Source: Marsupella aquatica (Eukaryota; Plantae; Marchantiophyta). From it: a DNA stretch of 64,000 nucleotides. The position numbers were made by a program, and so were the translations under genes. The notes beneath the pieces are model-generated. The model did not search any database and was not told the DNA's origin. It saw only the letters and a list, made by a program, of their open reading frames with translations. Below are positions 2,641-59,400 of this stretch, one piece after another. The DNA lies in assembly GCA_973895155.1 (NCBI GenBank), contig OZ316894.1:19320805-19384804 (forward strand). Reading direction: 5' to 3'. How positions within the stretch are numbered: position 1 is the first letter of the stretch; every line of letters starts with the position of its first letter.

Positions 2641-5600
2641 CCGCCCCCACTGCGGCACCCGCCCCCTGCACGCCCCCCTCCTGCTCGGAGCCAGAGGGGT
2701 AGTAGGCTGTGCGTTCCGCTGTGCTGCGAGCCGTTCGAATCTGTCCGCGTGTCGTTGGATAAAGACCACCACGATGGCAGTCTTGTCGCAGGAGTTGATT
2801 CTGTCCCTAGTGTACTTTGCACGTAACATGTAACTTGTTGTTTCTCTTGCTGAGGTAACGTGTAACCTAACATTTTTCTGGGGGCTTTAGTTCAATGGGG
2901 TGTCTCAAAGCTCATAATCTGATGTACCTGAATTTCATAGTAACGAGTTACCCCCCACACAAAATCGGGCTTGGCAATGAAATATTTGACTATTCGCAGA
3001 ATTTATCTCACTTTTGATTGTTTTTCGCCATATTATTCTGTCATCTGATAGGGAAGCCCGAGGGAATACCAAATTCCATAGTCCATTACTTTCGCCACAA
3101 AGATTATAGGTATCCAAGTGCCATTAGTTAGTGTAAAGGCTCGTGCATAAAGAGCTTTTACATAACCATGTGACAAAGTTTTGAATCCTTTGTGGCTCAA
3201 AAGTTATGACAACTTTATGGACATGATCCATAAATTTGAAGCTTTGAGGCTCCCTAATGTCCTTTCATTAGTTCATAAACTTGGTTTGGTGCTACCTTGT
3301 TCAGGAGCCTATTTAGGTTATTTGTCTTATTCAAACTTTTGATATGTATTTTAAATTTTACTTACCTTGGACAAGTTGCATATTTTGTGTTAGTGTGTAC
3401 TTTGAAGGTGTTTCCCCCCTCTCTTAATGTTTATACTTTTCTTTTTTCAGAACTCCTCTCTAGGTCAACATTTATTTCTCAACATTTATTTCTCAATCTT
3501 GCCAACCCATTGTCAGAATAGATCATTTCTAGATCCTTATAATTAAGTCTATTAAAATACACTGAGGATACCTGAACCCTAACCTATTTCTTCCCAAGAG
3601 TGTAACTAAGCCAAGGAGTGTGAGAAACAAACACTTCAAGATAATGCCAAACCCCTGCCAGGCTTTTAACTTCTATTCAAAATGTTACTTCCTAACTATG
3701 TGGTTTTGAGTGACTTACATATGACTAACTAACAGTCACTATGAGAGAAACAGTCATGAAAATTCCACCACTTAATATTTGAAAGAAATTTATAAATCTT
3801 GTAGAAGCTAAATAGTTGTGTACTAGAAAAATAACATGTGGGGATAAAAGTGTGGCCGACACTTTGTAAGGCCATAACACTAAGGAGAGGGCACAAGTCA
3901 AACTTACTACTTTATTTATGCTTTAAGGTGTTCATAAAAAAAATTCCAACTCTAAAAAGAATGATTAGTCTTAAAATTATAATCTTTTTGAGCTAGAAAC
4001 GCTACAAGCAAAGCTACTTAACTTTCTTTTGGGAGACCCTAACAACTTTAGTTAGCTTAAAGAAAATTCTTTTGCTGATTTGTCTAGAACGATACAATAG
4101 TTCTAGAAATTTTTAATACCATTTGGGGAAGGTTGCTCAAAGTTAGACCAACCTTAGTGTCCCTTCATCAATTGCACAATATTTAACTTTCAAGGAAGTG
4201 TTATACGTGGGGGTTGAGAAGCTAGGGTCGGTTTGGGATGTTTATTTTTGGCTTGGAAAAGGATACTTTAAAGTTCAATGTTTCATGTGAACTAAGGTAT
4301 CATGTTGTAAAGAGCAACATGGGGTGTAAGGGTGTACATTAATTGAAGAGATGTTACCTTGGAAGGGGGGTTATGAACCTCAACCATGGGTGGACTGTGT
4401 CAATGACATTTAAAAAAAACCATCAGTTGAGTTCTCCAGGTTAGAAGTCATATGATTTTCTCTCAATCTACTTATGTAGATAATTTGAGCCCCTTTGAAA
4501 AAGAAAAAAAAACCAAGCAAACAGTAAGGTTTTGATACTCCCATTGAGGATCTAAATCCCATTTGGGCACACTTGGGATGATGTAGACGGGGATGTAGAT
4601 TTCATTGTAGCTTTAAACTTGGTGGTCATGTAAATCTTTGGCAAGGCAAGTGCCATTTAACCCACCAATGCACCTCTAAAGTGTTACTCTCTCATTATAA
4701 AGTTCAGAGGAGATTCAGGAATGGGCTTGAGCTCCACCAAGGTGATGAGTGCATAACCTTTTATTGGCAAGTGCTCCACCTTTTATGTTGAGACCTTGCT
4801 CCCCACATGACAGGCATGAGGAGTACAATAGTGAGGGAGGGAATACAGGAGGGAATGAGGCCTTTATAAGGGCAGGTGTGGTTTGATTGTATTTGACACA
4901 ACCATTTTTGGCAGCTACAGTTAGAAATGATCTAAATGAGAAATCTCTTCTAATTTTGCTACATGGTGATCATTGCCAAATTTAAATAAAACTCTGAATA
5001 GTTGGAATGCACTTATCAGAGTTCCATTTTTTAACCCAGAGAGGCATGACTTTGTGGCACCTCACTTGAGTAGAGACTGATAGGTCTTGGGTTCAATTAT
5101 TGTGGTTAACTCTTCCCTTTCTGTGGGATTTCACAGATTTCCCCTTTAAAAAAAATTTTAAAAAAATAAATATTCTCAAGGAAAGTTACATTTTGTTATC
5201 TTAAGCACACTAAAATGGTAAAAACGCCAGTGAGAACTGTAACTCTTTTTTGGGCTGTGGCAGGTGGCAAAGGGGACAGACGTGCTATTGTGCTAAGCTA
5301 AACTACATTCGAACTGAAAGACTGCACATATGTATATACTAATGAAGTGGCAATATGGCATTGTGGGCCATCAGGCTCTAAAAAAAGAGGGCTTTAGCTC
5401 AAGTGTTGAGGAACATTTATTGCCCATAATCCCACCCATAATTGTGCCCTACTGTAGGTGTTAATACGTTAAAAGCTTAAAAGATTTTATAATTGTTATT
5501 ATTTATAGTAAAATCAGAGAAATAAACTCAATAAATAAATAAAATAATTCTGCAATCATGTGTATAACATTCGTCTCCATAAAGCATCCAAAAGTACAGG

Positions 5601-7439: not shown

Positions 7440-7700
7440 TGTAGATTTATGCTAAAGGGCCCCACATAGTGTCCATGTTGTTGAGTGCCCCAAGAACAGT
7501 AGCCAAGCATCTATGCTTTCCATTGCCACCCTCTTTAATTTTGCAAATTCGCTTTCTATCCTACTTTGTGGTCCTTCTTTGAGTGTTGTGGGTGTTGAGA
7601 TGAGATATTCTTCTCCTCAAGTAGATGGACTTGCCCTACACCAGCCTATCCCAGAAAATATTTATGGGCGAAGATCTGGTTCCATGGGATCTCATCTACA
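7440..7700 (+). repeat. Dispersed repeat, inverted copy of ~14700-15000 (decayed TE remnant)
   Basis: Blocks aagggcccc/acata-tgtcca-tgttgagtgccccaagaa, aagcatctatgctttcc, ttttgcaaattc and tactttgtggtcc are shared with the reverse complement of 14700-15000. Confidence 0.6.
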
Positions 7701-14699: not shown

Positions 14700-15000
14700 G
14701 ATACCCACAAAAGTTTCAAAATGGAGGAGAGGGACCTTTTGGAAGCATAGATGCTTAAATATCTAATGTTTTTGGGGCAATTCCATTTACCGAGACAAAG
14801 AATATCTCATCTTCATCTCATAACTATGACCCAGCCGCAACATATGAAAGATGGACCACAAAGTACGATTGACAGATGGGGAATTTGCAAAAGCAAGAAA
14901 GAGGTACACGAAGGAAAGCATAGATGCTTTCATTGCTTTGCCAATCTTCTTGGGGCACTCAACAGTGTGGACATTATGTGGGCCCTTGGGCATATTTTAG
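14700..15000 (-). repeat. Dispersed repeat, inverted relative of 7440-7700
   Basis: Shares sequence blocks with 7440-7700 in the opposite orientation; no intact ORF. Confidence 0.6.
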
Positions 15001-16522
15001 TTGGACTGACATTGGCACCGACCATTGGATGTACGTGATCAGATCCATGACAGCCAAAACGGTATATAAGGTTGCTCCACCTTTAAACAACCTTCTCCAG
15101 ATGGTACTAAAAAGGTTTTTAAGACTATCCTATGTAGATAAATTAGTAGCAAAATTTTCTTTAGGATAACTAAAGATACAAGCATCCCCCAAAAGAAAGT
15201 AAAGTAGCTGGTCCCCTAATGTTTCTGGCTCAGCAAGATTATGCTATTAAAAAGGATTTTGAATCGTTCCTTTTTAGAATCGGGATGAATTTGTTGTTAA
15301 TCACCTTAGAGCAAAAATAAATTAGTTTTGGACGACGCGCGTGGTACCTGTGCAGCCCTCTCCTCCCTCCTCATGGGCTTACACAGACTTTGTCCCATTT
15401 TTCAAGTCCTCTCCCCATGTCATTTTCCTAGAAGAAAAGTGTTTAGCTTCTAAAATTTAGTGTGAATCCCTGTAAAAAAGTGGTGGGCATTTCACGGCTT
15501 CTCACAGAATGACTTTAGTTAATGACAAATAAGTCACTAAAAACTATAAACTTAGCCCAAACAAAACTGTGAGGAGTAGTTAAAGGGCAAAGGTTGAGAT
15601 CACCCTCAAGTTTTTCTTCCTCACACTCCCCGGAAGAGATCTTGAGCCGAGATCTCTCTCCTTTATGACAAAATGCCATTTTAATATTGATTGAATATAA
15701 GACTAAAATCAACACATGAAGGATTGGAAAGTAAATATAAAGCTAGGGGGATCTAGGAGGAGTAAATTAGGCAAACTGAAACAAAAATATGTAACAAAAA
15801 TATGTAGCAAAAAATCCCACTAAGACAAAGTAACCTGACAAGCCTCCTGAACCCGACTCCCGACTCCCGAACACAAGGTAACACTAAAATAACCGGTTTC
15901 AAATGATGGCTTTTGGAAAATTAGCAATAGTTTTCAAGTACTAGAAAATGTCTAGAGGTTATCCCAAAAGTGTGTCTATTAGAGTAAATTAATTTGTTCA
16001 GAGCTCTAGGCGTAGGATCTTATCCTAAAATTCTTACATTGTTAATAAGTCAAAATAGGCATGCATTAGGATGAACATGCTATATATCCTGCAGCATCTA
16101 ACCCACCCCTTTATGCTGTCACCCCATTGAGTTTTTATGGCCCTATTAGTAAATTTGTTTTTTACAGGGATCTTGAACTTTTCATAAGTATTCTGGATCA
16201 TCAAGGGCAGACAGCATTCTTTCTACTGTAGCTCTTTCAAATGATATTTAAGGGAGCGAATAAACTTTTCCGGGAGGCTGTTTTTGGGGTCACTCTTCAG
16301 CTTGTGCTCCATTCCATCAGTCATTCCCAAAATTAAGATATATTAGCCGTTTAATCTCCAAAATCTAGCGAGGGAAACATTTGGGTTGTTAGTTACTTCG
16401 GCAACCCTCAACTTTCTGATTGGGAGTGGATGGCCATTAATGATTGTTTAGAGCTTCCTAGAATTTTACACATTCACCCCTCTTTGTCCCTAGCTCCTTG
16501 TGGCAAACGGGGTAGGCAGACT

Positions 16523-19600: not shown

Positions 19601-21439
19601 AATTCCAGCTCTAGATTTCATTCGTTCGTTTCATGCAAACCACGACTCTAGCCGAACAGTCAATAGTGTGATTCTGATTTGATTTTTAATGCTCAAACGG
19701 TTTGACATTTATGTGTGAATTTCAATCAAATGCTCTGCGGGAGTAGTGCGCGCGGACTCCTAGGGGGCAGTACAGGATTGAAATTGTAGTACTGGCTCCT
19801 AGCTACCAACTGTAGAATCATGTGCGGATGAAAGTGTTGTATTCTTCATATATGATACCTGACACACCGACGTGACAGGAGAAGAACGCAATTACGAGAT
19901 TCGCGCCGCGCAATCTTGCGCTTGATCATCGGTGCTTTACATGTAGTTACTTCTTGCATTGATTTGTTCGTGCATTTGGTTCGCATGATTTTCTGCCTAA
20001 TCTCGCCTAAATTGAGGTTTGTTCACAATTGCGCCGATGTTCACAATTGTACTGCCACCGGGACTCTCTGATCAACAGAGCCACGACATGCAATGATGCA
20101 ACATATAGCAAAGTAGTTCGATACAAGTATTTTTGGACGTACATTCAAAGCATTGTAACTGTTCACTCTTGCCAGAGAATTGAATGTCTTGCCATAGAAT
20201 TGAAGAGAGTTGGAGAAGGCGCAATGAATTAATGTTCAGGTAGCTGCAGTCATTCATGTGCACAAGAGCAGTTCGTACCGCCAAACTGGTAGGACCAACG
20301 CTTGTAAAGAGCTGCCAATTAAGGCAATATCTTTTACCTTCACACTAGCTGACGTACTAGCGTCAGCTTACTGCAGAAGGGTGCATGCAGAAGACGGGAG
20401 AGTCACAAGTCATTACCATTATTTTTCGGCAATACCTCAGCTTTTAGTGTGTACCTAGTGCTACATGAACAGCTTATGGGCTAACTTGACAACGATGAGC
20501 CCTCAAGCTTCCCTGGAGAATTTGTCTGCTCTTGGGTGGAATTGGTATAGTTATGTACTCAGCAACACCTAAAGCTTGCTATGCATACACTCTGGAACCA
20601 TGAAAGCAATGTATTTTCAACTTTGTCCAAGTTATTTGACTCCAGATCAGGTCACTTATCTACTGGCATGTCTTGTTTTCCCAGTTTAGCAAGAAGTAAA
20701 CCAATAAACTCAATTTATCAATTCCAAGGAATAAACTCAATTTATCAAGAATGGATGTGTATGGATGATTGATAGGCTGCGGAGCAATGCAGGGTTTGAC
20801 ACGCGCGGCATTGAACTTTGCCAAGTTGACGTACAGCTCCACTCACATTTCAATATTTCATCGTCTTGGGTTAGCTGTTTGTAACTCACCAATCGTTGAG
20901 GGCACACCATACATCGATACTGTCGCCGAACTCTTTGGATTCATTGTGCAGCTCAATTCTGTCATATGACGTTTCTCGCTGTATACATGGAGAGTGTCAT
21001 TATTCTTCCGTAACTTCATTTCTCGATAGATATTACCGTTGGACTAGATTCATTACCTGAAGAAATCTTTACACCTTCTCTGTATGATCCCGTAAATCCA
21101 TGTATATATGCTTGACACAGTGCCTGAATATTCTGCTTCTTAATTTGCTCGATCCCTTCTTGTTGTACCAGAGAATATCGGAATAAATTTCTCGATCCCT
21201 TCGTGGGCTTTATGATCTAGCAGGCATGAAAGGAACGCCGCAGTTCAGGGACAGTTCATCACAGAGGTGAACTGAGGTGTAAGTGGAAGGAGACTAACTA
21301 ACTGGAAGGAGACTGACCAGACAAGTACTAAGCTTAGGCTGGATTGACTTGCTGCAACCACATATACCATAAGGCAGCTTCATCTTTCCGTTGAGTTTCG
21401 AATTGGGTGGATAACGCGGGTGGGTGGTGGGCTGGTGTG

Positions 21440-21799
21440 GAGGGCGATGGGGCACTAATCTTAGTCTCGATCTTAGTGCATTGTCCAACCTTACAGATCG
21501 TCGTCTATTGGATATGTTTTGCAATGGTCCAAGTCGGCAACTTGACGGGACTTAGTATTCTGGACCTCTCATCCAACTTATTGAAAAGCTTTCCTGAAGG
21601 TTAGCTGCAATTCATCGGGACTCTTCCAGCTGGATCTGTCATGGAACAACCTTATTGTCACGGAACACCTTAACTTTGTGGATTTCTGTCCTCCGATCGA
21701 TTGTCACGGAACACTTTAACTTTGTGTATTTTCCAACTCTATTGATCTGAAAGATGAGTGAAAGATATGGTTCCGTTGATTTGTGTCAAAATAGGCTTG
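21440..21799 (+). pseudogene. Plant-type LRR (receptor-like) gene fragment, 5' part, disrupted
   Basis: LRR motifs in shifting frames: LSALSNLTD..LLDMFCN, VGNLTGLSILDLSSNLLKSFPEG, FQLDLSWNNL and SVDLCQNRL. Confidence 0.75.
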
Positions 21800-21820
21800 T
21801 TATAAAACATCTTTACGGAT
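21786..21820 (+). repeat. Left terminal direct repeat (35 bp) of the HUH element
   Basis: Identical to 27316-27350 except at one base (21809 a vs 27339 t). Confidence 0.95.
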
Positions 21821-21984
21821 GATATAGCCGGCTCATCCTGGAACAAAAAATGTTAATTTGTCCTATGCAGGAGATTAAAAAGTCGGGGCAGAGTGAAAGG
21901 GATAAAAAAGTTTCCTATGCCACGGGCAAGGGGATGGGTATCCAAGGGGAGGAGTATCCAATGCAGTGGGGGCAACTGGAAGGG

Positions 21985-22645
21985 CTCGCTGGCGCAGGGC
22001 AATTCAGTCTACGAGAAGGGGCTGGCGCGCCAGGGCGAAGGGCGAAAGGCAGGGCGCAGGGATGGGCTGGCGCAGGGCAAAGGGCTGGCGAAGGGCGAAG
22101 GGCTGGGGAACGCAGGGCGAGGCTCACATTGTGCAACGATCAACTCTCGATGTCTGATGGCGGCTGCGGCGGGTGTTGAGGCTGGACTCGAGCTGCTGTG
22201 GCATGGACTCGAGCTGCTGTGGCATGGACTCGAGCTGCTGTGGCATGGACTCGAGCTTTCATGGCTGGTGGCTGCTGGACTCGAGCTGCTGTGGCTGGTT
22301 GGAGATGGACTCGAGCTGGGCTTGGGAGCTTGCTGGACTCGATCGATGACTTCATGCTGCTACACCCACTCTTGATGCTGCTCGTCTGATTCGTGATCGT
22401 TGCTGCTGATATCAATGTCACTGATCGATTGCTGCTGTCATTGAGCTACTGATGCTGCTGCTGTTGCTATCGATCGCTGTTGATGCTCTCGTCACTGCTG
22501 ACATTGAGCTAATGATGCTGCTGATCGATTGCTGATGCTGCTGATCAATTGAGGCTGGACTCGATGTCTGATGTCTGCTCGCTCACTGCTGCTCGCTCTC
22601 TCTCTCTGACTGCTGCTCGCTCTCTCTCACTCACTGCTGCTCGAT
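21985..22645. repeat. Subterminal low-complexity arrays inside the HUH element (gctggcgcagggc units; 21-bp ggactcgagctgctgtggcat; ~24-bp cactgctgctcgctctctct)
   Basis: 21-bp units start at 22184, 22205, 22226 and 22247, with degenerate copies after them. The other arrays are directly visible. Confidence 0.85.
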
Positions 22646-23989
22646 CTCTCTCGCTCACTGGAGTCGTTTACTGCTGGAGTCATTTATCGCAGAGTAGTGT
22701 AGTGGTTCGCGCTGATGCTAGAGCAGTGAGCGAGCAAGCAGCAATGTTCTTCTCCTTCGATTCTCCCAAGCAGCAATAGCTGTGAGCTGAGAGCAGCTCT
22801 ACAGTCTATGAACACAGTCCACAGTGGACAGTCCCCTCTCGCGATGCTGCCTTGCCTAACTAGCAAAAAGAAGTTTACCTCAAGCTCGGACCCAGCAAGA
22901 GAAATGCCCCTTGCGGCTCTCTCGTCCGTCGGCTTCGTGCAGCTCTAGGGAGCGCTTCATATGTGTTTACGGAAAGACAGACGCACGGTTCACAGGCAGA
23001 GGCATTTGAAAACGAAGAGAGACACGGGAAGGAGGTTAAGACAAATCAGTGATTTCACTAACTCTGGACATTCTTTTGTCCAATTTTTTATCATGAAATT
23101 TCCAACAACAATTATTCTTTTCCCTATAACTTGAGTTCTAGAGTACATTGTATGTTGTGCATAGATTTATTAGGAGTAGCTTGTTAAGCTTCATATATCT
23201 TGATCAAAAAATTTCAAATATGATATTGATAAGTCTCATATTTATCTACAATTTAGTTGATTTAAATTTCCAAAAAGTTGTTATGAAATTTCCAAATCGT
23301 TAATAATATTCCAGAATTAGTGAAACTATTGATACAAGTTGAGCGAGCTCGTTCGGCTCACGTGAGCGAAGTCGCGTTATTGATGTTCCGCTTTTCATGA
23401 CGAAGCCTGGTGATAGTGGAAGGAGGAGATGGCGACGGCCTAGTAGTCCCCTGTGCTCCCCTTCTCTCTCGTCTAGCAAGAGGGATTTAGATTTGTTTTC
23501 ATTTACTCAGGAGTCCTCCATCATCCGTTGTGAGTCTCTGTAAGGTGAAGGACCTTTCCATTTGGGGCCGAGGTTCCATAGTTGGTTAGTAGTTTGGCAG
23601 GAGTTGATAACTGAGCTACGTTCATTTTTAACCCCCTTGCAGCTCTCGTTTCGCTTGGTGGCTGAGACTGAGCAATCGCTGTCTAATGGTTCATTGTGAC
23701 GAGTCTTTCCATGTATCTTGGAGGCTTCCAAGTATTTTGGAGTTTGAAAAATGTATTTTGGAGTTTGAAAAATGAACGTTGTGTAATCTGTTTTCCAGAC
23801 CAAATGTTTTGGGCCGGTGACCTTAGCATTTAGTTTGGGGGGAGACTACACTTGTTTCACTGCTACTTAAGCAGAGCCCTTGCCTTAGTTTATTCACTTC
23901 TTCAGTGAGTTTGCTCTTGCCTCTCAGTGCTCCGCTCTGTCACTGCTTCCCATTGTTCTCAAGTCTCAGTGCTCAGCTCCTTCAGTGCA

Positions 23990-24660
23990 TTTTCGTTCAG
24001 TGCTCCAAGAAGGTTTGGTTCAGTGTTGGTTTTCATTCAGTGCTCCAGTGGGGTTTTGTGCAGTGCTGTGCTCTAGTGGGGTTTTGTTCAATGCTGTGCT
24101 CCAGTGAGGTTTCGTTCAATGCTGTGCTCCGGAAGGGTGTGGTTCAGTGCTGTGCTCCAGAAGGGTGTCATTCAGTGTTGTGTTCTCAGTGCATTTGTTC
24201 AGTGCTGTGCTCCGGAAGGATGTCGTTCAGTGCTGTGTTCTTGGTGCACTCGTTCAATGCTGTGCTCCAAAAGGGTTTCATTCAGTGCTGTTCTCGATGA
24301 GCTCGTTCAGTGTTGTGCTCCCGGTGCGCTCGTTCAGTGTTGTGCTCCCGGTGCACTCGTTCAGTGTTGTGCTCCCGTTCAGTGTTGTGTTCTTGGTGCG
24401 ATCGTTCAGTGTTGTGTTCTAGGTGGGCTTGTTCAGTTCTGTGCTCCAGGGGCGCTCGTTTAGTGCTGTACTCTTGTGGGCTATCCTAGTGCTTGGCCCT
24501 CAACTCTTAGTGAGTGTTTGCTTATCATTCTAACAAGTGCTATGCTAACAACTTGTGTTTTGTTTTGCTGTGATCTTGTGCTAACCTGTGTTGTGCTAAC
24601 CAGTGCTCTGTTTTGCTGTGATCTTGTGCTTACCAGTGTGTTGCTAACCAGTGTTTTGTT
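23990..24660. repeat. 27-29-bp tandem array (gttcagtg[c/t]tgtg[c/t]tc...) followed by tgtgctaaccagtg-type repeats
   Basis: For example tcgttcagtgttgtgctcccg recurs at 24303, 24330 and 24357. The array lies directly upstream of the element's ORFs. Confidence 0.9.
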
Positions 24661-24695
24661 CATTGTGACCAAGTTTGGCACAGTTTACAGCTCTA

Positions 24696-25055
24696 ATGTC
24701 CTCTGTCGAGTCACAGCTCCCAGAGGATGACTCTGATATTTCGCCTTACACAACATTGGATGTTGGTAATTTTATTTTAGAGAACATTGAGGCAACAACC
24801 TCTCATTGTGTTAGGGACGTCCAATTCTGCTGGGTAGTTTGTCGCCAAGGAGAAGAGAAACTTCTGGCAGGTCCATTTAAGATACTAGAACGTACAGAGC
24901 AGACAGGGAAGGACGAAGTTATTGTTGAGTCCAAGGGGAAAGTGTATTTTATTGTGAAAGCTGACGATATTTATCTTGTGTTTTTGTTTGAGTATCGTGA
25001 CTGTATTTGTGCATCTTCTCGTGAACTGTGTGCCCATCTTACATGGCTTCTTTGA
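24696..25055 (+). CDS. Uncharacterised 119-aa ORF of the HUH element, overlapping the Rep start
   Basis: Open ORF MSSVESQLPEDDSDISPY...CICASSRELCAHLTWLL, preceded by a tttacag acceptor-like site. It overlaps the Rep ATG (25043) by 13 nt in another frame. Confidence 0.55.
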   Translation: MSSVESQLPEDDSDISPYTTLDVGNFILENIEATTSHCVRDVQFCWVVCRQGEEKLLAGPFKILERTEQTGKDEVIVESKGKVYFIVKADDIYLVFLFEYRDCICASSRELCAHLTWLL

Positions 25056-26359
25056 AGCGTAAAGCTCGTGTTGTGCAAGAGAAGGATGTCTCTTTGATGG
25101 ACAGTGTCATGGAACTGAGCATTACAGTAGGGTACCTTGGTGTAGATGTTCATGCTGAAGAACTGAACCTTATGAATGGATTGATAAGAGACCATTGCAT
25201 ATCTGGTCTTGTAGCATTAGAGAGAGGAGAACTAGAAAGTCATTTGCATATGCAAATGGTTGTGAGGGCCAGAACAAAGTCTGCTAGATCATTTGGTGTG
25301 CTTGTACGAAAATATATAGGCTGGCAGGGGATGAAGAATATGAATCCTGTAGGGAAAGTGATGTGTAAAAATCTTACCAATAGGCAATTACACACTTTTA
25401 AAGGAATGATTGGTTACTGTTTGAAAGATATGGGCATGGCTCATTTTCAGCATGCAATGTTTAATATCTCTGATGAAGATGTGATTGCAGGGAAACAACT
25501 TCATTCAATCTATGGACATGCAGATTTAAAATCTAGAGTGACATTGACTAACAAGAATGTTGTAGAGAGAATGTATGTTTGGTACAAATATAAAACTGAG
25601 AGACCTTTGCATGCTACTTTTGTTTCTACATTGACTGAAATGGTAAAATCTGGTATTTTTATACCGGCTTCTAGTTGGATAATACCATTGAATGGACAGG
25701 GCATGGAAAAATCACGAATGACATGTCTCTGGAAATGTATTGTTGATCCTTGTAATGTAACTAAATGTGAGATTGGATAAGTTTTTGACAGGAAACCTAG
25801 GACTGGCAGTTGGGGAAGATATCATAGTGATTCAGAACTTGGAGAGGATCCAGAATTGACCCCTAGGAGTACAGAGACAGAGCTCTCTCCCCAAAGGAGC
25901 TCTTTGAAGAAGTTGAAAGTGAAGACAGAATGTGATAGAAGGGTTCGTTTTGATGACATTTTCACAGAGTCTATCATTCCTGACAGGGGAGTTACATATG
26001 GTGATCCCCTTGGTGAGTATGTGCCTTTGAAAGATAGACAAAGGATTCCAAAGCATGATTATCTTGAAACTATTAATTTGTTAGAGGAGAAGAATGTTGC
26101 AGGAATGAGAAAGGGGAAAGAGAAGATGGAAGATGTGGAGATGGAAGATGTGGCAGAGGTGGTATTGTTATCCTCTGATGATGAGGAAGTAATTCCTGCC
26201 CCTGTTTTTGAGGACAGGGGCCAGTCCAGTGAGAGGAAAAAAGGAAAAATTACCTTATTAAGAAAATCACTTTTCAGAGTGAAGACTGAGCCCAGATCTC
26301 CTAGGACACATTGCAGGGGAGATGGGTTTGCTATGGAGCCCTTTCAAAATAATTGGTAA
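25043..26359 (+). pseudogene. Replitron-type HUH endonuclease/transposase, 438 codons with one in-frame premature stop
   Basis: Motif I-like LSITV; HUH motif ERGELESHLHMQ (HLHMQ at 25241-25255); catalytic YxxK GYCLKD (YCLKD at 25415-25429). TAA at 25778-25780 is followed in frame by VFDRKPRTGSWGRYHSDSELGEDPE and the 25856-26359 ORF. No Walker A/helicase motifs. Confidence 0.88.
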
Positions 26360-26482
26360 GCTTTTTCAATTCTCATTCAAGTTTCATTTGTGTGCTTGGA
26401 GTGGATGTGAGCATTGGGATGGGGGATTGGGTGTAGTGATAGTGGGTAGGTTAGGGGGGGTTCTTTGCTTGGAAGGCTGCAC

Positions 26483-26779
26483 CTCGGGGGTCTCACTATA
26501 TGGGGACCTCCCCATCACCTGCGATGTTTACAAGCCTCGGACCTCCTAAAATGTAAGAATTTTTTTTAATTTTTTAACCCCTATAAAGTTGGAATATTCC
26601 AAGAATATTCCAAAAATTGGATTAAAAAGACCTTAATGTTCTTATAAGTCTCAAAATTGAATTAAAAAGACCCTATTGTTCTTCTACAAAAATTCTTAAG
26701 TCTTCCCTTAGAACCAATAAAATGACCCTATCCTTCGTCGCACGTGATATGCCATTTTTGTGAAAGTGAAACCCCCGAG
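26483..26779. mobile_element. 297-bp MITE with 8-bp TSD nested in the HUH element
   Basis: TIRs ctcgggggtctcact and agtgaaacccccgag (14/15). Perfect TSD GGCTGCAC at 26475-26482 and 26780-26787. Inner inverted motif atcacctgcga / tcgcacgtgat. Confidence 0.85.
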
Positions 26780-27315
26780 GGCTGCACCTGCAGTTTGGGG
26801 TTCAATTCCCCATCAGAGATTTGTTCATTACACTAAAATAGTAGAATATCATATTGGTGGATTATTGATATAGGGTCCATTTTTTTATCACGTTGGAGAA
26901 GACGCTAGCTATTTCCCAATGTTTGAGAATACACTCGGCTACTTTCATTTCCATATTGGTGATTATTGATATAGGGTCCATTTTTTATCACGTTGGAGAA
27001 GACACTCCTTGAGAAGACACTTGCTATTTTCATTTCCCAATATTTGAGAATACACTCGGCTACTTTCATTTCCCAAGGAAACAGGGTGATATCCAAAATG
27101 ATTTTAAGGGGGTGCCATGGAACACTCATTTTCCTTAAAGGGGTAGTTTTAAAATTGGCAGCCTTGGTTTTATTAAAAATTATAAGGGCCTAAAATAATT
27201 CAAAGAACACTTCCATTTGATACTGTTAAGTACATTATCAATTACATTAATGCAAAAAAAAATTACAATCAAAAACATGAAACGACGCTTCACCATATAG
27301 CAGCATCAAAAAAAA

Positions 27316-27350
27316 TCAAAATAGGCTTGTTATAAAACTTCTTTACGGAT
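27316..27350 (+). repeat. Right terminal direct repeat (35 bp) of the HUH element
   Basis: Matches 21786-21820 with one mismatch. Confidence 0.95.
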
Positions 27351-27353
27351 ATG

Positions 27354-27490
27354 CTGAAGCAATCCAGAGAGTACACTTATTGTGCTTGCCTTGACTAATT
27401 TGGCACACAACACTCTTGATTGGGACATACCTATTGATGGTACCAACTATTCCTGTCTTTCATTGCTTGATAACCTAGTAATTAGTTTTG
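27354..27490 (+). pseudogene. LRR gene fragment, 3' continuation
   Basis: AEAI(P)ES then LTNLAHNTLDWDIPIDGTNYSCLSLLDNLVISF, continuing as AFNS after the MITE at 28060. Confidence 0.6.
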
Positions 27491-28050
27491 AAGGTATATG
27501 TTTAATGGACCCGCTCTCGACTGTTTCTTATCTAATCAATCCCCTATGTCAGACTGCCCCAATGGACCCCCCTTGACAAGTCCTTCCCGATAGTTATTGG
27601 GAAGAGCACTATAGGGAGATTTTACCAGGGTGAACTCTAATTTTCTCTCATATGAGCCTGTAGTCAAGCCAGTGGTATGTCGAAGTTGTGTCGAGATAAG
27701 AGTCGGTCCACAGTCCACGCGTGATAAGATTGAATGACACCGGACGCAGTCGTGGGTACTTTTGTGTTTGAAGACATAACTAGTATGATCTTTAAACATT
27801 TAGGGATTAGTCTCCAGCCGGGTCTCCATTTGTCTGAAGTTTAGAGGTAATAAAACTGGGCTGCTATCTCCATAATGTTCAGGTAGACTGTAATTTTAAT
27901 ACACGGCATGTCATGAACCACAAACTATCAAAGGGGGTTGATTGGGTAACAAACAGACTTTGGGGGGTCGATTGGGGCAGATCTGTACATAGGAGGTCCA
28001 TGACTAAAGTAGGAAACTGTTGAGAGGGGGTTTGATTAAGCATATACCTC
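27491..28050. mobile_element. Mutator-like (MULE) MITE, 560 bp
   Basis: ~90-bp imperfect TIRs (aaggtatatgtttaat...ctgccccaatggacccc and ggggtcgattggggcag...attaagcatatacctc). Perfect 9-bp TSD TTAGTTTTG at 27482-27490 and 28051-28059. Confidence 0.9.
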
Positions 28051-30229
28051 TTAGTTTTGCATTCAACAGCCCAAATGTAATCATGTGGCCAAAATGTTGT
28101 GGAAAACTTATTTTTCCCTTGAAAGGCTATTTTCGAAATTGGTCACAAGCACATGTTTTTACTGGATGGCAGTAATATAAGTACTGACTCTCAGAAAATA
28201 TTCTGGCTGGGAAAAACTCTGCAGCTCCAAAAAGTACATTTAATTAAGTTTTCATGGCCAACGACTGCAAATCAGGTTCCTACTATGGGAAGTTGAGTGC
28301 CGGACCCATTTCCTCAAATAGTATATTTTTGGGTTTCAAAGTAACCGCTTTTTGGAACACACAAAAAGCTTGGCGAGAACCTGGGCTTACACTAAACTAA
28401 ACCTAAACCCTAAACATGTTTTTCATGCCAGAAGGTGGTAACTTACTTATTTATTTCTGATACACCTCAATTCCAGGAGTACTAAGTCTTGTGTATACCT
28501 GTGTGTTGCAGCTTTTGGTCCAGGGCAGACCAAGGGGCAGACAAAGGTAGTGGCAAATGAATGCTGCTCAGCTGCTGCTCCGGCTGTTTTGAGATGGCGC
28601 TTGCATTTCACATCTACCTGCTGTCACACATCTTGATACTTTCTTGATATTCAACTTAGCTTAGCTTCTCTCAACTTCTTGTGCATAGTTGAGCAGGTCC
28701 TTAATTAAAGTCAAAATTGGGAAGGTTTTGGGTTCCATGAATATTTATTGGAAGTGGGGGTGGGACACTCACTACCACTCCAAGTGGCTGGAAACATGTT
28801 CCACAGCAGACCCTGGTTCCCACTAATGAGTTCACATAGTCAATGCCATTATTTGGGGTCTGGCTTTCAATGACATTCCGTGCCAAGCTTGTTGGTTACA
28901 AAATAAGCCCTTCACAGAGACCTCGCAAGGATGGCAAAAGAAAAGAAGTGGTTCAGTGTACATGAACCTGTTTGTCTTAGACCTAACTCAGCAACAACAA
29001 ATTGGATGGACTTTGTCAAAACTATGTCAGACCCAATTAAGGCTATGCCACATATTAACTAACCATCAAGACTGGCAAAACGTTTTAAGAGGTGGCTTTG
29101 AACACGGTTAAGGAGAATTTAGGATTTCTGTTGAACTTTTTATTTCCTCTTCTTCCTAGTGACAAGAATGTATAACCCATAGAGTTCTGTGACCTAGCTT
29201 AACAATAAAGTTATCATCTTTTTTGCAAACATCCAAGAAGGAGCCCTAAATGCAAGCTAAGTCAAAAGTAAGGTCAAGGTCAACACAAAACCCTAACTAA
29301 GAAGACTAAAATGTGAAGTGTGATAAAGTTACCGCGGCTCCCTTTGTAGTTCAAGATCAAGATGTGGAATGAAAAGTGTGATACATTTCTTGTACTTCTT
29401 TTGCAATTCCAAGAATGAGATTTGGAAGGTAGGTGAGATAAATTTCTCCAGAAAGCAGATGGAATGCAGAGAGAAAAGGACAGGCTTTCCCCACTTTCTT
29501 GGAGAAGCCTGAGAATTATTTGGGCAATATCATTTTATGTTAGCAATGATTTTATACAATAACACTATTATTCAATTGGTATCAATCAGTGCTTCAAAAT
29601 GAGTACAAACATGACTAGCGTTGGATTTTTATTGACTGAGTTATCCTTCTTAGTTTTGCAAAAAATAAGATATGACTTGTTACCAATCTTTGTAATGGGA
29701 AAAACCTGTAGTTTTGTATTACTTTGGATTCCCCCTCCTATATATTTGGGTACTCTAGGTCAACCCCCAAGTTTAGATCCTTTAGCTACAAATTTTGAGC
29801 ACAAACTTTTATCTGAATTATAACCTTCTAGGTGAAGACAACATAAGACCAGTATTAAATTGGGCTTCATAGAAGTGCAGAAATGAATGATGGAATGCTA
29901 AGAGGGATAAATTTATTGCACTTATTGTGGGAGTTCAAAAAGACTAGATGGAATGCCAAGAGAAATAAATCTCCCTTTCTTGCTTGCGCACCAGGAAGTG
30001 ACACAAATGCAAACTGGTAAATTATTGGTCTCCCCCTTGGTTTGGATCCTGTCTAAAGGCATCTGGATAAAATGACCTGATAATTAACTTAGTTTTGGGG
30101 GCTTATTAGTACTTTAGGCAAGTTCGAGATAGGATCCAGCAGGGCCCTAACCACCATACCCCTTCAAGCCCCATTTTTGGGTCCCCGGCCTTTAGAAAAG
30201 GGTCCCTCTATTGGATCTCCTGGGGATCT

Positions 30230-31607: not shown

Positions 31608-36381
<4,774 letters not shown>

Positions 36382-46924: not shown

Positions 46925-48895
46925 TGGCCAAATACTCCTATCTGATGACCAGAAATCAAATTTTAAAAAATAGAGAAGGAGCACAAATTCACTAAGTTCC
47001 ATCTCAGCCAAATTTGTCATGTTTTCTATTTTCCCATAAGCCACTTTCCCACCAAGCCAGGAACTCCATAACGCCAAAATGTAACGGTCATCCTCAAGTG
47101 TAGGTAAAGGTGAAGGGTAAAACATCAAGAATAATCAGATACAGTGCATTCCCAGCATCTTCTCCAGTCAACGTATCTCTTAGTCACACTGGCGAAGATT
47201 AATTATAAAAAAAAACACTCTAAACTTACCCTATAGTGATATTTATCAACTTTGGAACAGTCCATTCCGCGTTTCCCGTAACCCGGTCCCGAAATCCATC
47301 AGACCCAGACCGAGGTGCTCTAGCAGCCGTTAGATAGCGTTGTGGTCGTATCAATAAATAAATCTGGAATGGACTCGGCCCGGCCCCGGCTCTACCTGGC
47401 GGCTATGGTGTAGACTACTGTACAGATCTACAGGCACGTAACAAAAGGTACGTAGTAGTAGTGTAGTAGTGATAGTGCAGTACACCAGTAGTACGCTCGT
47501 TGTTTCCGTTAACAACGCTCCTGCAATTTTTCGTCGTGGTCTCGAAGGAAACGTTGCCTTGAAACTACCGTTGGGGTCTTGGGGGCGGGGGGAGGAGGGA
47601 GGAGACCAATAATTATGGGCGGATCGGCATGGTGGTGTAGGCCAGCCACACGGTCACGTCCATGTAAGCGCAGTATTCAGTGAAGCTCTGGATGGGGTGG
47701 GAATTTTGGAAGGAATGGGATGGAATGGGAGCGAGGAAATCGTCAAGAGGAGTTGTTACGGAGTTCCTTGGTGATGAAGTACCACGTGTAGGAGCCGGTG
47801 AGAGAGATTGGGAAAATTGGGGCCATTCGAGCTCGGTCTTTACCGGAGTACAGTGGTAGTTTCCGATCGATTGGGTGACTTGGTTTGGGAAAGCGTAGGG
47901 ATGGGGGATCTAGCTGGCTGGCTAGCTAGCTCCTGCGCGTACAGTAGGGTCTTGTGAGTTTTGACTGGTTGTGACCCGACGGATCCTGAGTGAGCATTGA
48001 AGGTTTTGTTGTCTGTGGGGCATGACTGTTGGACGCTGGGCCGCATATATAGCTTCAAACCGTGCCAGTGTTGCATCATTCTCTCCTCAGTCAAGCGTGC
48101 TCGCTCGCTTGTTAGCCTTCTCTACCTCTCTCCTTCTCGCTCAGTAATCAGTGCTCATACAGCTCAAGAGGATTTATCGAAGCTTTCTGTAACTGCTGAG
48201 CTTGGTGTCATTGCGGCTAATAGTTCGGAACAAATTTCTGCGAATTGCTGCTGTATCACGCACATTGTGAGAATTTCATCCTCTGAAGTCCCTTCCTGCC
48301 GTAGACTCGATAGAGCTCTTCCGAACCGTGTGCTAGTGTTCTAGATGTCTTGAAGGTCTTCGGATTCTATGGTTGCTGTGTCTGTCACGGAGAAATTTCT
48401 GTGGGTGCTGTGTTTGTCACGGAGAAAATCTAGTGTTGTGGAAGAGAGGAAGAGGCGAAGTATTAGATCACGGAGCTTCAATTCGTCTCGTCGCATCGTT
48501 GAGAGCTTCATTTCTGCAATGCAGTAGTGGCGCAGCAGAACCACAGCGCGGTCACTTCTCCCCGCTTGCGTGGTCTGTCTATCGAGTAACGTGCATTGCT
48601 CTGTACACATTTCATCTTAGCGTCTGTATTTACCTACTGTTCTGCCATTGCAGGTGTGACTGTAAAGACCAAGCTCCGCTTTTCCAAATCGACGCCTCGT
48701 GTCAGCTACTTATCAGGTGAGAGCCGAAAATACTTCGTCCTGGATGCATTTGTCGCTATGCTTTGTGTCATTCCCGCAGAGTGGAGTAGAGAGTCTATCG
48801 GAAGGATTTTGCCTCCTCAACACTGTTTCAGGATTTGTAACTGCGCCTTCCAGAGTCGCTCACTCTCTTGTTTCTATTGATGTGCAGGATTTAAG

Positions 48896-49276
48896 ATGGC
48901 TCAGTCTGCAGCTATGCTCGTTACCTTCTTTCTTCTCGGTTTGATTTCGTTCCAGGCTGCTGCCCAAGCGCCTACTCCTGCGCCAACCGCAGGTGGCCCA
49001 GTCCCACCTACACCTCCAGTGGCTGCTCCCCCTCCCGCTCCTACTCCAGTCGCACCTCCGGTTGCAGTTCCCTCTGTTGTTCCCACTTCTACCCCCGTCG
49101 CCACACCAAGCGGCACTCCCGCAGGAGCTCCAGGAGCTCCAGTCGTTACCACTCCAGCAGTGGCTTCGCCTGTGGAAGCCCCAGGACCCAGCCAGCCAGG
49201 CAGTGGAGTTGGATCTCGACAGGCATGGAGCGGAGCTGCTGTTGCCTCGGTCATCGTTGCCGTTATGGTATTATGA
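48896..49276 (+). CDS. Classical arabinogalactan protein (signal peptide, P/A/S/T-rich core, GPI-anchor signal), 126 aa
   Basis: N-terminal hydrophobic signal ending AAA|Q, then QAPTPAPT with AP/TP/SP/VP dipeptides. C-terminal small residues are followed by the hydrophobic tail AAVASVIVAVMVL. An acceptor gtgcag lies just upstream (5'-UTR intron) and a TATA-like atatata is near 48045. Confidence 0.92.
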   Translation: MAQSAAMLVTFFLLGLISFQAAAQAPTPAPTAGGPVPPTPPVAAPPPAPTPVAPPVAVPSVVPTSTPVATPSGTPAGAPGAPVVTTPAVASPVEAPGPSQPGSGVGSRQAWSGAAVASVIVAVMVL

Positions 49277-53013: not shown

Positions 53014-54339
53014 TCAACCTAAGGAACTATACTGAGATCTCCTGGAAAGACGCTTCAGGCTCCTCTTCCTCGAGATTCTGCACTCTGTTGAAGAGTTCTT
53101 AACAATTGGATGCCCAATTTTCGAAGTCGCCGACATCATCGAGCTATTCACTGAACACAATATACGGTCCTTCGTCAAACCAGTTCTCTTTCTTCTCCTA
53201 TTAGAAGAACACAGCCGATTCCTCAATTGCTTTACAGCTTCGCTGTCTTGTTCGATTTGATTTGCGGCAACACAGCTTTGACGTCTTTCACTCCTGGCCT
53301 TACTTGGAGGTTTTCCTTCGCTTGTTGCTGGCTTTAGGGGGAGCAATTGCAACAGCGTTAGAAGCAAGACGTGGCAAAGGAAGGCGACAAGCTCCAACTT
53401 GACCGAAGGGAATAGGGTAGTATGGTGAGACGGGGACTCCGACGGCAGGGAGTCGCTTGGTAGCGCTGCAGGCTCCATCACACCAGACTTAGAACCATTT
53501 CCTTTCAGACCTCTGTAATGAGCAAGTTCCTCTCTCAGTGCAGCATTCTGCGCCGAGGTAAAGGCTACTGTTTGGTGAAGCATACTCATCTGGCTTTCCA
53601 TGGCACGGCATTTAGATTCCAGTTCCTTAACGTATGACTTCTTCCGTTGTCGTGACTGCACGGCTGACTCCCGATTCCTCATCAGTCTGCTTTGACGTTT
53701 AGAATCTTCATCAATTTCATCGGGGGTCCTGTCACTCATTCTTTTCGACTGTTCGGCGAAATTGTCACAGCTTCTACCGAAAGCCCCGACGTCAGAGCTG
53801 TCACAACCTGCATCGGGGCTCGCTGCGCCATGGTCTGAGCAGCTGGTCACAACCGGACTATGGAGCCGAGAAGATCCGTTCCTCACCTCGTCTCCAGAAT
53901 TCGAAGATGGTCTATCCTCCTCAACCTTATTGCATGACACCGGACTGGAAACTCCTCCATCAGGGAATTCCCGACTGGACTTCGGCTCATCCAAAACACA
54001 AAGATTGCTTGCAGGCGAAGAAATCTCGCTTGACAAGCCAGGCAGGCTGACAGTCTCCTCACCGATGAAGCTATTATCCAACTCGTGAAGGTCGATCTGG
54101 TCCAAAACTGGATCCGCCGGCAGTGCTGACCACCATGTTTCTGAGTTGGGGACCTCCCCCAGTCCCGTGATGTCTCCAAAATAGCTATCTACCAGCGATC
54201 CTTCATCCTCCAATTGCACCTGTCCATCACCAACCCCTACCGCCTCTGGCTCTTGCAACAGGTGGTTCAACATGTCCTCCCACGTTGATGGGATCGGCGC
54301 AGACACATCCCACGCCGGCACAGGATTCAAGTCCTCCAT
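53014..54339 (-). CDS. bZIP60: bZIP60-like membrane-tethered UPR transcription factor (unspliced form 441 aa)
   Basis: bZIP basic region KRQSRLMRNRESAVQSRQRKKSYVKELE plus leucine zipper, acidic N-terminus, and a hydrophobic segment LVAFLCHVLLLTLLQLL after the IRE1-type motif. First ATG (MEDLNP) at 54339. Confidence 0.9.
   Translation of the reverse strand: MEDLNPVPAWDVSAPIPSTWEDMLNHLLQEPEAVGVGDGQVQLEDEGSLVDSYFGDITGLGEVPNSETWWSALPADPVLDQIDLHELDNSFIGEETVSLPGLSSEISSPASNLCVLDEPKSSREFPDGGVSSPVSCNKVEEDRPSSNSGDEVRNGSSRLHSPVVTSCSDHGAASPDAGCDSSDVGAFGRSCDNFAEQSKRMSDRTPDEIDEDSKRQSRLMRNRESAVQSRQRKKSYVKELESKCRAMESQMSMLHQTVAFTSAQNAALREELAHYRGLKGNGSKSGVMEPAALPSDSLPSESPSHHTTLFPSVKLELVAFLCHVLLLTLLQLLPLKPATSEGKPPSKARSERRQSCVAANQIEQDSEAVKQLRNRLCSSNRRRKRTGLTKDRILCSVNSSMMSATSKIGHPIVKNSSTECRISRKRSLKRLSRRSQYSSLG
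53435..53477 (-). promoter_or_regulatory. Twin stem-loop IRE1 cleavage signal; 23-nt unconventional intron 53446-53468
   Basis: mRNA: uggagc-CUG^CAGC-gcuacca and gacucc-CUG^CCGUC-ggaguc. The two cut sites are 23 nt apart. Confidence 0.88.
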
Positions 54340-56452: not shown

Positions 56453-59400
56453 ACAGAGTAGCTTTTGCTTGCGCTTTATTAGTTACAGATCATGCTACCA
56501 AAGAACAAAAACCCCAAATAAGGAGACATGATCCTAGAGGCCAAGGACCCAATACAGGGGTGAACACAAGGGGAAAACCCCAGGAAACCTAAAGAGCCAA
56601 AAAGCCCAAGAGTCCCCTACTACAGTAATAAATTAAAGCCCTATCAAGCAACAAACCAAAAAGCCTGGTATAGCTCTGGAGCAAACCGCATAGCAAGCTG
56701 CATAGGAGGGTCACAAGGACAACTTGTCTAGAAGCCCTAGAACCAACAGCCTTGGCTGCTCAAGAAAAGTGAATGCCTAACTCCTCTCTAGAACAATCGA
56801 CACAGGCTGTTTAAAGAAGGCAGTGAGGACAGAATCCGCGGGGGAGGGGGGGTTAAGCTATACACAAAAAGACTGCACATGCCTACACCAAATGGTCAAA
56901 GAAAATTGATCCTAATTAGAGTACTGGAGGCACCAACATGAGGGACATCATGTACAGTGCCAGCGATAATTCTCTCCTAGCACTGTACATGTAGGTAAGA
57001 CCAGACATGAAACTTGTTTCTGGTGCTTGTGTGGATCACTGAGCATATGTCACCCTTAGTTTTGCCAAGGACTCAACACGCACACTGGAGGGCCAGGTGA
57101 ATGTATTAAAATGGAGCTCAACAAGGGCCGTAGTGAGTGTAGCAAATTCTTCAAACAAATAGGCTTCTCAGTTGAGCTCCCTGTTCTTACACTACGGCAT
57201 ACTAACTTTTGATAGTTAGGGGAAGGAGAGAATATATTCTCACTACTTAGTATGATAGTTTGGGGAAGGAGAGAATATCTACTCACTACCGGACAACTAG
57301 AAAAAAATCATGCGGATACCCTGGGTCCTTGCTTTTTGTGGGTTCAAGTCATAGTATTTAAAACAGATCAATAATCAAATGTTTTGAGTGATTAGGAAAA
57401 TGAGGCTGGAAACGCACAAGTTTTGCTTGCAAATAGCAGAATGTGAAGCAAAAGTGAAGCTCTGAAGAAAGTCTACTCTCGCCCCACAAATGTTACATCC
57501 CCACAAATGTTACACCTGTAGCAACATTACTCTTGGTTGCGATTGATAGTAAAGATATGGGTATAATGGGTGCTGGGAAAGAGCCACCCAACGACAGATG
57601 GGTGAGGAGTGGGGACAACAGGTAGCCATCGGACTGGGGGGATATGACAACAGGGGTAAAAGATATAGCAAGTTCATCATTGAACATGTTTTTTTTTGTC
57701 TTGTAGTGATGTGTAATTCAGTTAAGTAGGTACATGTAAAATATATGCACATAAAATCACATTATGACAAAGAAAGTACAAAGGTACTAAAGAGTTGAGT
57801 TATGCACATACAGTGATACAGTACAGATTTTCACTTGCTTTTAGGTTATGACATTCAACTCCATTAAAACCATAAATTTTGCAAAATAAACCATGAGGGG
57901 AACTTAGTACACCAGATGTGCACATTGTTCAAATTCATTTCTTACACTCTCATGAGGAAAAAGAGAATTCACTATGGAGTGATTGAAAAGGAAAGATTAA
58001 ACCTTGATGAGGGGAGCCAAATACATTCAAAATACTCTAAGTTCACTAGAATTAAGAAGGGTCCTAAAGTTAATTCAAAATTAAATTAATACAAATGATT
58101 TATCTTGTTAAGGCACATTAAAATCAAAATACTTGACATAAAATTTGAATGAGACAAAATATGAAAGGTGGATTCACCATATAGCATATAGCAGCCTCAA
58201 ATTGGGAATAGAAGGATACTGAGGACTCTGATTTAGTTTGGGATTTAATCTACCATTTGTATTGCCATTTAATAACCGAATGGACACCATTTCTACCTTT
58301 TCTTCACCTCCTGTTTCAATTCTCCTCGGTAAATCTAGGATCAAAATAGAAATTAAAGTGATTCTTAGCATACGGTATTGTACTGCCTATTGGTGAAGAT
58401 TCTTTAACCAGCGTTTGCTAACTTTATCAAATTGCTAAACATAAACGAGCTGGGCCAACACACTTGCTTAGTTTGAAAGCATTATTCTACTTTTCCTCAA
58501 TGACTGTGGAGTGCTTCACCTTCGTCCTCCTTTCCTCCTCGTCTCTTAGTGGAGGAAACATGTCATTTCTACGTATATACTGTTGTTCTTTTTATCTGAT
58601 TGGAAGTTCTGTCTTCCAATCACAGCTCAGGAAGGACGTCACCTCACTGAGGTAAAAATAGAGCTTTCACTCTTTCAGTGGTACACGTATTTAATTAGTG
58701 GGGAAACCCTTCCATACACGCTTCCTCCCTGGACCGTAGAAGGACGAACAGTATTGCCCATTTATTCAAGTCTATACTAGGGAGTCTCAAACTTGGGCTA
58801 TTTTCCAACTTTTTCCCGTGAGTCCTTCTAAGAAATCTATGTGAGCCACTTAGACCAAAATCTAACTTTTGGGTAACCTTAATACATAGGGTTTCAGGTT
58901 TGAGATGGGTTTCAACACATTCCCGCCAGTCAGCTGCGAGCCTACAATTTTAGAATGGTTGCTGACAATTATACAAGGGCGCAAATGATTCTTGAAGGGC
59001 ACCAACGCATATAGTGCAAAGCAACATTTGGTGCGGATGCAGTGCACTGACTGCCTGACTTACTAACAGTCACCTTGGGCGGGAACTGCATTTTCTTCTG
59101 TGACCCGGAAGCAACATTTTGGTCACGGGAACATTTCGGCCCCAAGCTTATATTTTGGAATTTTTGTTTGTTGTTGGGGTTCTTCGGCTTCACAAAAAAG
59201 GCACATCATTTGCAACAAAGCATAAAATTGTTTTTTATTGGCTCTAAAGAAAGACCTCAAGTGACTTTAATAGAGAAGATAGTGTTTTCAAAACCAATTT
59301 AGGGAAGATTCCAAGCCAATACTCTAAACACATAGAGACAAAACCAAAAATCAATTTTCAACATCACAGGTGATGGGGAGAGTCAATATAGTGAGACCCC

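Follow-up and report, generated by a model that had tools for sequence, protein, structure and literature searches.

A Replitron of the liverwort Marsupella aquatica lies between 35-bp direct repeats that are very probably a target-site duplication

Introduction

HUH transposases work on single-stranded DNA and would not be expected to produce a target-site duplication (TSD). Replitrons are recognized by a set of defining transposase motifs, namely SUTU, a conserved Glu, HUQ and GYxxK (Craig 2023, PMC10288648, drawn on here, like the other papers cited below, in part of its text). Their mode of insertion is a question left open in that work, where TSDs are tentatively linked to Fanzor; in Chlamydomonas Replitron-1, variable-length TSDs and fuzzy right ends have been described (PMC10288648, PMC9977147). 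Replitron lengths are quoted as 0.9-4 kb (PMC10741241), with one incomplete consensus of 4.5 kb in Craig Dataset S1, and leafy liverworts fall inside the known host range (Craig 2023 Dataset S3). Here we describe a Replitron copy in 64,000 nucleotides of the liverwort Marsupella aquatica (assembly GCA_973895155.1, contig OZ316894.1, positions 19,320,805 to 19,384,804, forward strand), a stretch that we call the window. The element lies between two 35-bp direct repeats, which an earlier note, made from the sequence of the window alone, had taken for its terminal repeats; our analysis indicates that they are very probably a duplication of the target.

Results

Ends of the element and the flanking 35-bp repeat

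Other copies of the element were followed in contigs of four public runs (X1-X4) belonging to two studies, X3 coming from another study than X1 and X2. Contig depth in these runs is not copy number, and the copies are known as contig fragments, mostly 90-99% alike to the copy in the window. The features on which the argument turns are:

21822..27315, + strand: Replitron copy, 5494 bp (5189 bp without a nested miniature inverted-repeat transposable element, MITE, and one copy of the MITE TSD)
21822..21828, + strand: left direct terminal repeat ATATAGC, coinciding with the start of the sequence common to the copies
27295..27301, + strand: right direct terminal repeat ATATAGC, the second occurrence of the 7-bp repeat
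27302..27315, + strand: right-end extension past the terminal repeat, AGCATC followed by eight A; other copies stop after six or seven A
21821..21821, + strand: single G between the left 35-mer and the terminal repeat
21786..21820, + strand: left copy of the probable TSD, host sequence, 34/35 identical to 27316-27350
27316..27350, + strand: right copy of the probable TSD, partner of 21786-21820
21395..21820, + strand: target, a decayed leucine-rich-repeat (LRR) coding sequence that resumes about 26 bp after the right TSD copy

The element belongs to a dispersed multicopy family, as seen from several unrelated right flanks and from a raised depth across the unit, which in X1 is at least 53.6 in every bin compared with about 19 in the flanks. 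At the left end, the single-copy contig stops at 21851 in X1 and X2, 31 letters past 21820, and one base earlier in X3; with words of 31 letters, this places the start of the common sequence at 21822 (or 21821), just 3' of the left 35-mer. At the right end, depth is at least halved at 27314 in each of the four runs (76 to 38, 291 to 133, 625 to 214 and 236 to 91), and sister copies stop at 27313-27315 and then continue into unrelated flanks. Among 23 of the 51 loose-end rows, five lie at 27313/27314; these lead to unrelated flanks and none enters the 35-mer.

Just inside these limits lies the short direct repeat ATATAGC, which occurs at two sites only within 21701-27500, at 21822 and 27295; the chance of the left 7-mer recurring within 25 end positions is about 0.002. 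The right end passes this repeat by 12-14 bp (AGCATC and six to eight A), and in one row of X4 (27287) a diverged copy departs from the window sequence straight after the right ATATAGC, with no extension. ATATAGC fits the size class of reported Replitron terminal repeats, 5-11 bp (review PMC10741241). Right ends a few bases past the repeat are described for two families in Craig 2023, where runs of a single nucleotide and flanks rich in A are also noted for the ends of Replitrons, and some consensus ends in Craig Dataset S4 are similar by eye: cTet begins ATATGTCC and finishes ATATGTACATCAAT (36/36 header contexts). The G at 21821 may be a 36th base of the TSD that has mutated in the right copy, a base of the target, or the terminal base of some copies.

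The exact left-end pattern had no match in the metagenome contigs. No circle or tandem junction was found among the joints seen, including 15 of 140, which says nothing against their existence because contigs drop rare forms. Separately, depth at the left end (21870-21930) stands far above that of the right end in X3 and X4, reaching 10718 and 2137 at 21873; this may stem from numerous non-autonomous derivatives or from overlap with a different repeat.

The pair of 35-bp repeats is not expected by chance: direct repeat pairs this good should occur about 3e-10 times in 64 kb, and the score of 32 compares with a null maximum of 8, none of 40 random position pairs reaching it. In two runs the two junction contigs of the locus together account for the whole depth over the 35-mer (36.0 = 16.9 + 19.1 in X1; 124 = 97.6 + 26.4 in X2), so no other assembled copy carries it. 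The earlier note had proposed a search for other copies with the same direct repeats; the sister copies seen run into unrelated flanks and lack the 35-mer, so that this check speaks against terminal repeats.

A site without the element was then recognized in the two remaining runs. Two contigs, X3 record 21 and X4 record 29, align over 27316-27376; they depart from the window by 2-3 letters and a one-base gap in 60, and are preceded by 25 and 18 letters. These letters match the left flank at 0.97 agreement (two contigs per run), compared with 0.74 for a row of two apparently unrelated flanks; the contigs are therefore made up of left flank, a single 35-mer and 26 bp from the right flank, and then pass into sequence resembling the LRR-type units at 21669 and 21715. 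X1 and X2 hold no empty-site record. Because sister copies end just inside the repeat and the empty site holds a single 35-mer, we conclude that the 35-bp repeat is very probably a TSD. The LRR nature of the target is seen in LxxLxLxxNxL-like frames judged by eye and in a weak LRR_8 match, under the cut-off (E 0.038).

Two observations concern the surroundings of the insertion. A second version of the left flank (21286-21657), about 90% alike, is found in X3 and X4, and is possibly the haplotype or paralogue carrying the empty site. Another multicopy repeat, about 27377-28250, starts about 26 bp past the right TSD copy, where the empty-site contigs leave the window, and contains an inverted repeat (27492-27572 / 27962-28049).

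The transposase gene

Within the element, the coding region comprises the following features:

25043..26359, + strand: Replitron transposase gene, with a Y1 HUQ Rep domain at about amino acids (aa) 22-157, a helical domain 2 at about aa 170-245 and a charged C-terminal tail
24696..25055, + strand: upstream open reading frame (ORF) of 119 aa, its last 13 nt shared with the beginning of the Rep frame
24040..24473, + strand: tandem array of 27/28-bp units inside the element, upstream of the genes

The frame has 438 codons and a terminal TAA, and is interrupted by one internal TAA at codon 246 (25778-25780). The Rep motifs start at aa 25 (LSITV), aa 67 (HLHMQ) and aa 124 (GYCLK), and the full SUTU/Glu/HUQ/GYxxK set is present as SITV (aa 26-29), E60, HMQ (aa 69-71) and GYCLK (aa 124-128). 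Over the first 245 residues, the Pfam profile Replitron_HUH (PF21859) matches at 60.8 bits (E 2.2e-16), above its cut-off of 28.5. Replitron_C (PF21860) matches aa 174-240 at 23.1 bits (E 9.8e-5), under the cut-off of 27, as do the homologues P0003, P0004 and P0006. Five homologues at 56-70% identity were found, in two of which (P0003 and P0006) the reading frame stays open where the stop lies in the window copy; none of 4912 candidates provided a longer homologue, and a PDB sequence search with the protein alignment gave no meaningful match.

A structure model built from 30 rows, mostly fragments (pLDDT, the predicted local distance difference test, 67), has a Rep-type order of strands and helices with good confidence at aa 22-157, while domain 2 is modelled as helical with low confidence. 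The best Foldseek matches of the model are circovirus Rep domains, headed by that of Muscovy duck circovirus (7kij; E 3.9e-3, probability 1.0, root-mean-square deviation (rmsd) 4.3); these matches are weak but agree with the result obtained in Craig 2023. VIA-align scores were middling, with a ferredoxin-like protein best (Z 8.8), followed by papillomavirus E1 (Z 8.2, rmsd 3.3, 112 aligned) and circovirus Rep (7.2), and on the modelled structure this result alone is not decisive for the fold.

No Walker A motif is present in the Rep frame, the sole [GA]x4GK[ST] in the six frames of the element being on the minus strand outside the gene, and no helicase Pfam match was obtained with the read-through protein or with 11 further ORFs (out of 20 in the element that begin with ATG). 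No capsid-like ORF was detected, and none of 85 candidate stretches in viral contigs held a relative. We therefore set aside a Helitron, which would have a Y2 Rep and a superfamily 1B (SF1B) helicase, whereas GYCLKD carries one catalytic Tyr and no helicase is found. An endogenous CRESS-DNA virus (with a circular genome of single-stranded DNA that encodes a Rep) was likewise set aside, in view of the lack of a fused superfamily 3 (SF3) helicase and of any relative among the viral contigs. Taken together, the protein is almost certainly a Replitron transposase and the element a Replitron. On these points the earlier note proved right: it had placed the Rep motifs in a frame at 25043-26359 lacking a helicase, seen the single TAA that splits its 438 codons, and proposed a Replitron distinct from Helitrons and CRESS viruses, an identity now borne out by PF21859 and by the circovirus Rep as best fold match. 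Its description of a one-mismatch direct repeat without terminal inverted repeats also stands (34/35 matches; no inverted repeat at the inner or outer ends in 40-nt comparisons).

The 119-aa ORF may represent either a second gene or an exon lying upstream. It gave no Pfam match at E<=1 and no PDB sequence match at E<=10. Both diverged and near-identical sister contigs cover it, and its overlap with the Rep frame is spanned by an X2 contig of depth 353 with one difference and no gap. A THAP9_C match on a Cys-rich repeat ORF (E 0.008, under the cut-off) was treated as chance.

State of the copy

Two lesions mark the copy in the window:

25778..25780, + strand: premature TAA at the end of domain 2, in the window copy and not in sister contigs
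26483..26779, + strand: nested MITE of 297 bp, of very high copy, with inverted ends CTCGGGGGTYTCACT and an 8-bp TSD GGCTGCAC at 26475-26482 and 26780-26787

At 25778, sister contigs read G, and thus a sense codon, over all the depth of X1, X2 and X4 and over 1149.5 of 1189.3 (97%) in X3. The T is kept in X3 at 39.8 of 1189.3, about single-copy depth, and since X3 comes from the other study the stop is not an assembly error; it is real and private to the window copy among the sister contigs seen. The bounds of the MITE were given by contigs that break off into unrelated flanks at 26483 and 26776-26779, and by others that skip it (joint 26481-26789). The MITE family ends in CTCGGGGG, and a diverged second copy lies at about 59187-59404 on the minus strand.

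The window copy is thus disabled, having gained both the stop and the MITE after insertion, and to call it near-intact, as the earlier note did while missing the MITE, was an overstatement. The same holds for the fairly recent insertion that had been read from one mismatch between the repeats: one difference in 35 bp is a divergence of 2.9% with a 95% interval of 0.07-15%, and so gives no usable insertion clock. Young sisters exist nevertheless, since some sister contigs are near-identical to the window copy, 44 bp of the right end being without a difference in X1 and X2; sister contigs read a sense codon at the position of the stop, and the active relatives suggested by the earlier note may exist. 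An excess of C-to-T-type changes in the window copy, 18 against 10 among 39 of about 900 in-element rows in a hand count, was uninformative and was dropped.

Metagenome relatives

Decayed relatives were collected at 18 metagenome loci, which represent few distinct sites; the TSD test was applied to four loci, equal to two sites, with both ends resolved. These moss-like Replitrons are about 1.4-1.5 kb long (L001:1504-2903, L008:9648-11162), with TATG-containing motifs at both ends, and their right end in ATCA resembles the CATCA that precedes the A run of the window element.

Other features of the window

Elsewhere in the window, a bZIP factor gene lies at 53014-54339 (minus strand), closest to that of Calypogeia fissa (64% over the whole length), with Marchantia and Riccia at 45-56% over part, which points to a leafy liverwort as the probable host. 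An alcohol dehydrogenase exon lies at 32857-33363 (plus strand), and a short Pro/Ala-rich ORF, arabinogalactan-like by eye, at 48881-49276 (plus strand). Diverged inverted-repeat arms are nested at about 4-15 kb (3600-4090 / 15130-15630; 7458-7580 / 14847-14985), and are possibly an old inverted duplication or a decayed element.

Discussion

How the duplication may have arisen

We favour, with a probability of roughly 0.6, the reading that the 35-bp TSD was made in the element's own insertion pathway, with both target strands broken about 35 nt apart and the gaps filled. On the model suggested by Craig 2023, the transposase, probably a multimer held through domain 2, would nick a single-stranded donor at the ATATAGC repeats, the donor strands being exposed by replication or by a host helicase. 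By analogy with Replitron and HUH biology, a copy of the strand would then be transferred to the new site in a copy-and-paste manner. At the target, a second subunit or a host nuclease may cut the opposite strand at a distance of about 35 nt, and host fill-in synthesis would then duplicate the 35 bp; tandem duplications from fill-in at staggered breaks are described in mammalian cells (PMC8355091). As in Chlamydomonas Replitron-1, termination would have been imprecise beyond the right repeat, leaving the right end variable (six to eight A; none in the diverged copy), and the stop and the MITE would have been acquired later.

Several points weigh against this reading. The TSD evidence comes from one locus with both ends examined in the window's family, and the empty site was deduced from alignment-table rows and not from contig sequences; its record may be an allele or a close paralogous LRR unit, although the 35-mer is single without the element either way. 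The TSD, unlike that of Replitron-1, has no RG ending unless G21821 is included, and the left end follows TG. The first six target bases, TCAAAA, recur 10 nt upstream in the end of the element (chance about 0.003, post hoc), a microhomology that also fits repair-driven capture. No clear hairpin was seen at the right end, where the weak folds reach -4.5 and -8.2 kcal/mol over 100 nt with no shuffle control. At the two moss-like sites (L001; L003, L006 and L008 being one site) the junction repeat is not above the null, 16-30 of 40 random pairs scoring as high; since it involves old copies (about 84% alike from site to site) of a different family, the test is weak but negative. Lastly, in the consulted part of Craig 2023 TSDs and fuzzy ends are reported for C. 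reinhardtii only and called possibly noncanonical, and 2-8 bp is a review figure for Replitron TSDs (PMC10741241), longer ones being possible in Chlamydomonas.

The main rival, which we consider somewhat unlikely, is a one-off capture, in which the repair of an unrelated staggered double-strand break took up a full-length Replitron intermediate, so that the duplication would be a scar of repair and not what the family usually leaves. It would account for the 6-bp microhomology between element end and target, for the one unexplained base at the left junction, and for the lack of a TSD at the two moss-like sites and, going by the part of Craig 2023 used here, in the other families; it does not explain why both ends fall exactly on the family termini, as transposase-made ends would, nor does it sit well with the only Replitron watched while active, which is described as having made TSDs always or nearly always. 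Retroposition in trans, by which a long interspersed nuclear element (LINE) would have inserted a transcript of the element, is quite improbable. Target-primed reverse transcription generally leaves an A run of variable length and then a long TSD, and the 3' A run here does vary (six to eight) ahead of a long TSD. The 5' end, however, coincides exactly with the terminal repeat, 3.2 kb upstream of where Rep begins, and is not truncated; the A run is short, common to sister copies and absent from the diverged copy; and no AATAAA occurs within the final 76 nt. Single-nucleotide runs and flanks rich in A are in any case noted at Replitron ends (Craig 2023).

Two further explanations concern the repeats themselves, and both appear highly improbable. 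That they are the element's own terminal repeats is suggested by their bracketing the unit within 1 bp and by the direct terminal repeats that Replitrons do have; sister copies, however, lack the 35-mer, the empty site has one, the 35-mer reads as LRR-like host sequence, and known Replitron repeats are of 5-11 bp (PMC10741241). Alternatively, a 35-bp tandem duplication may have existed beforehand, the element having inserted at its junction without making a TSD, and the target is indeed a decayed repeat-coding region with other local duplications (21637-21672); this would require insertion within 1 bp of the junction, and the empty site holds a single copy. We therefore retain duplication in the element's own insertion pathway as the preferred explanation.

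Significance

This is a known family in a known lineage, and it is the insertion signature that is unusual. The presence of a 35-bp TSD in a Replitron from a land plant appears to be new, as do the resolved ends and the 5.2-kb length; we found no later report on plant Replitron TSDs in the literature within our search, which left subscription journals and Dfam outside. A land-plant TSD of 35 bp with an empty site and variable right ends would make a second lineage with the Chlamydomonas-type signature, with a much longer stagger, and the window element supplies ends for a liverwort family, a group known from transcripts only in Craig 2023. It is possible, though less likely than not, that this liverwort Replitron clade normally leaves long, variable TSDs of tens of bases. 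Were it so, helicase-less HUH transposases would integrate via a staggered break of both target strands, and the Chlamydomonas signature would be canonical and not a local oddity, with no Fanzor helper required.

Comparison with known systems

The closest relatives are the leafy-liverwort transcript Replitrons of Craig Datasets S3 and S5, WZYK_B_trilobata_1 and NWQC_P_asplenioides_1, which show the same motif context through Rep and domain 2; here and for the C-terminal region, protein likeness was judged by eye. The Bazzania transcript protein WZYK_B_trilobata_1 is the closest named sequence, and its likeness continues past the TAA into the C-terminal tail. The leafy-liverwort Replitrons of Craig 2023 are transcript-derived proteins described without ends or insertion signature, and Dataset S1 has no liverwort genomic family.

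More distantly, CRESS-DNA virus Reps (circovirus) and Helitrons appear, on the modelled structure, to have the HUH/Rep fold in common with the window protein, which differs from them in having no SF3 or SF1B helicase, one catalytic Tyr and no detected capsid-like ORF. Replitron-1_cTet, -1_mVir, -1_aNel and -3_pSch resemble the window element in their short direct repeat and in an alignable right end a few bases past it; unlike the window element, they have no TSD according to the part of Craig 2023 consulted.

A further comparison is with Replitron-1/Replitron-N1 of C. reinhardtii (Craig 2023; Lopez-Cortegano 2023), as far as those papers were drawn on. That element and the window element both have a Y1 HUQ Rep with domain 2 and no helicase, and both appear to combine a short direct terminal repeat, a variable right end and a TSD. 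They differ in the TSD (35 bp in the window element, 2-8 bp in the review figure for Replitron-1), in the terminal repeat (ATATAGC versus TAAAGG), in the left end, which follows TG in the window element whereas the Replitron-1 target is RG, and in length (5.2 versus 3.6 kb); the window element, moreover, has no evident right-end palindrome, carries an extra upstream ORF, and is a dead copy.

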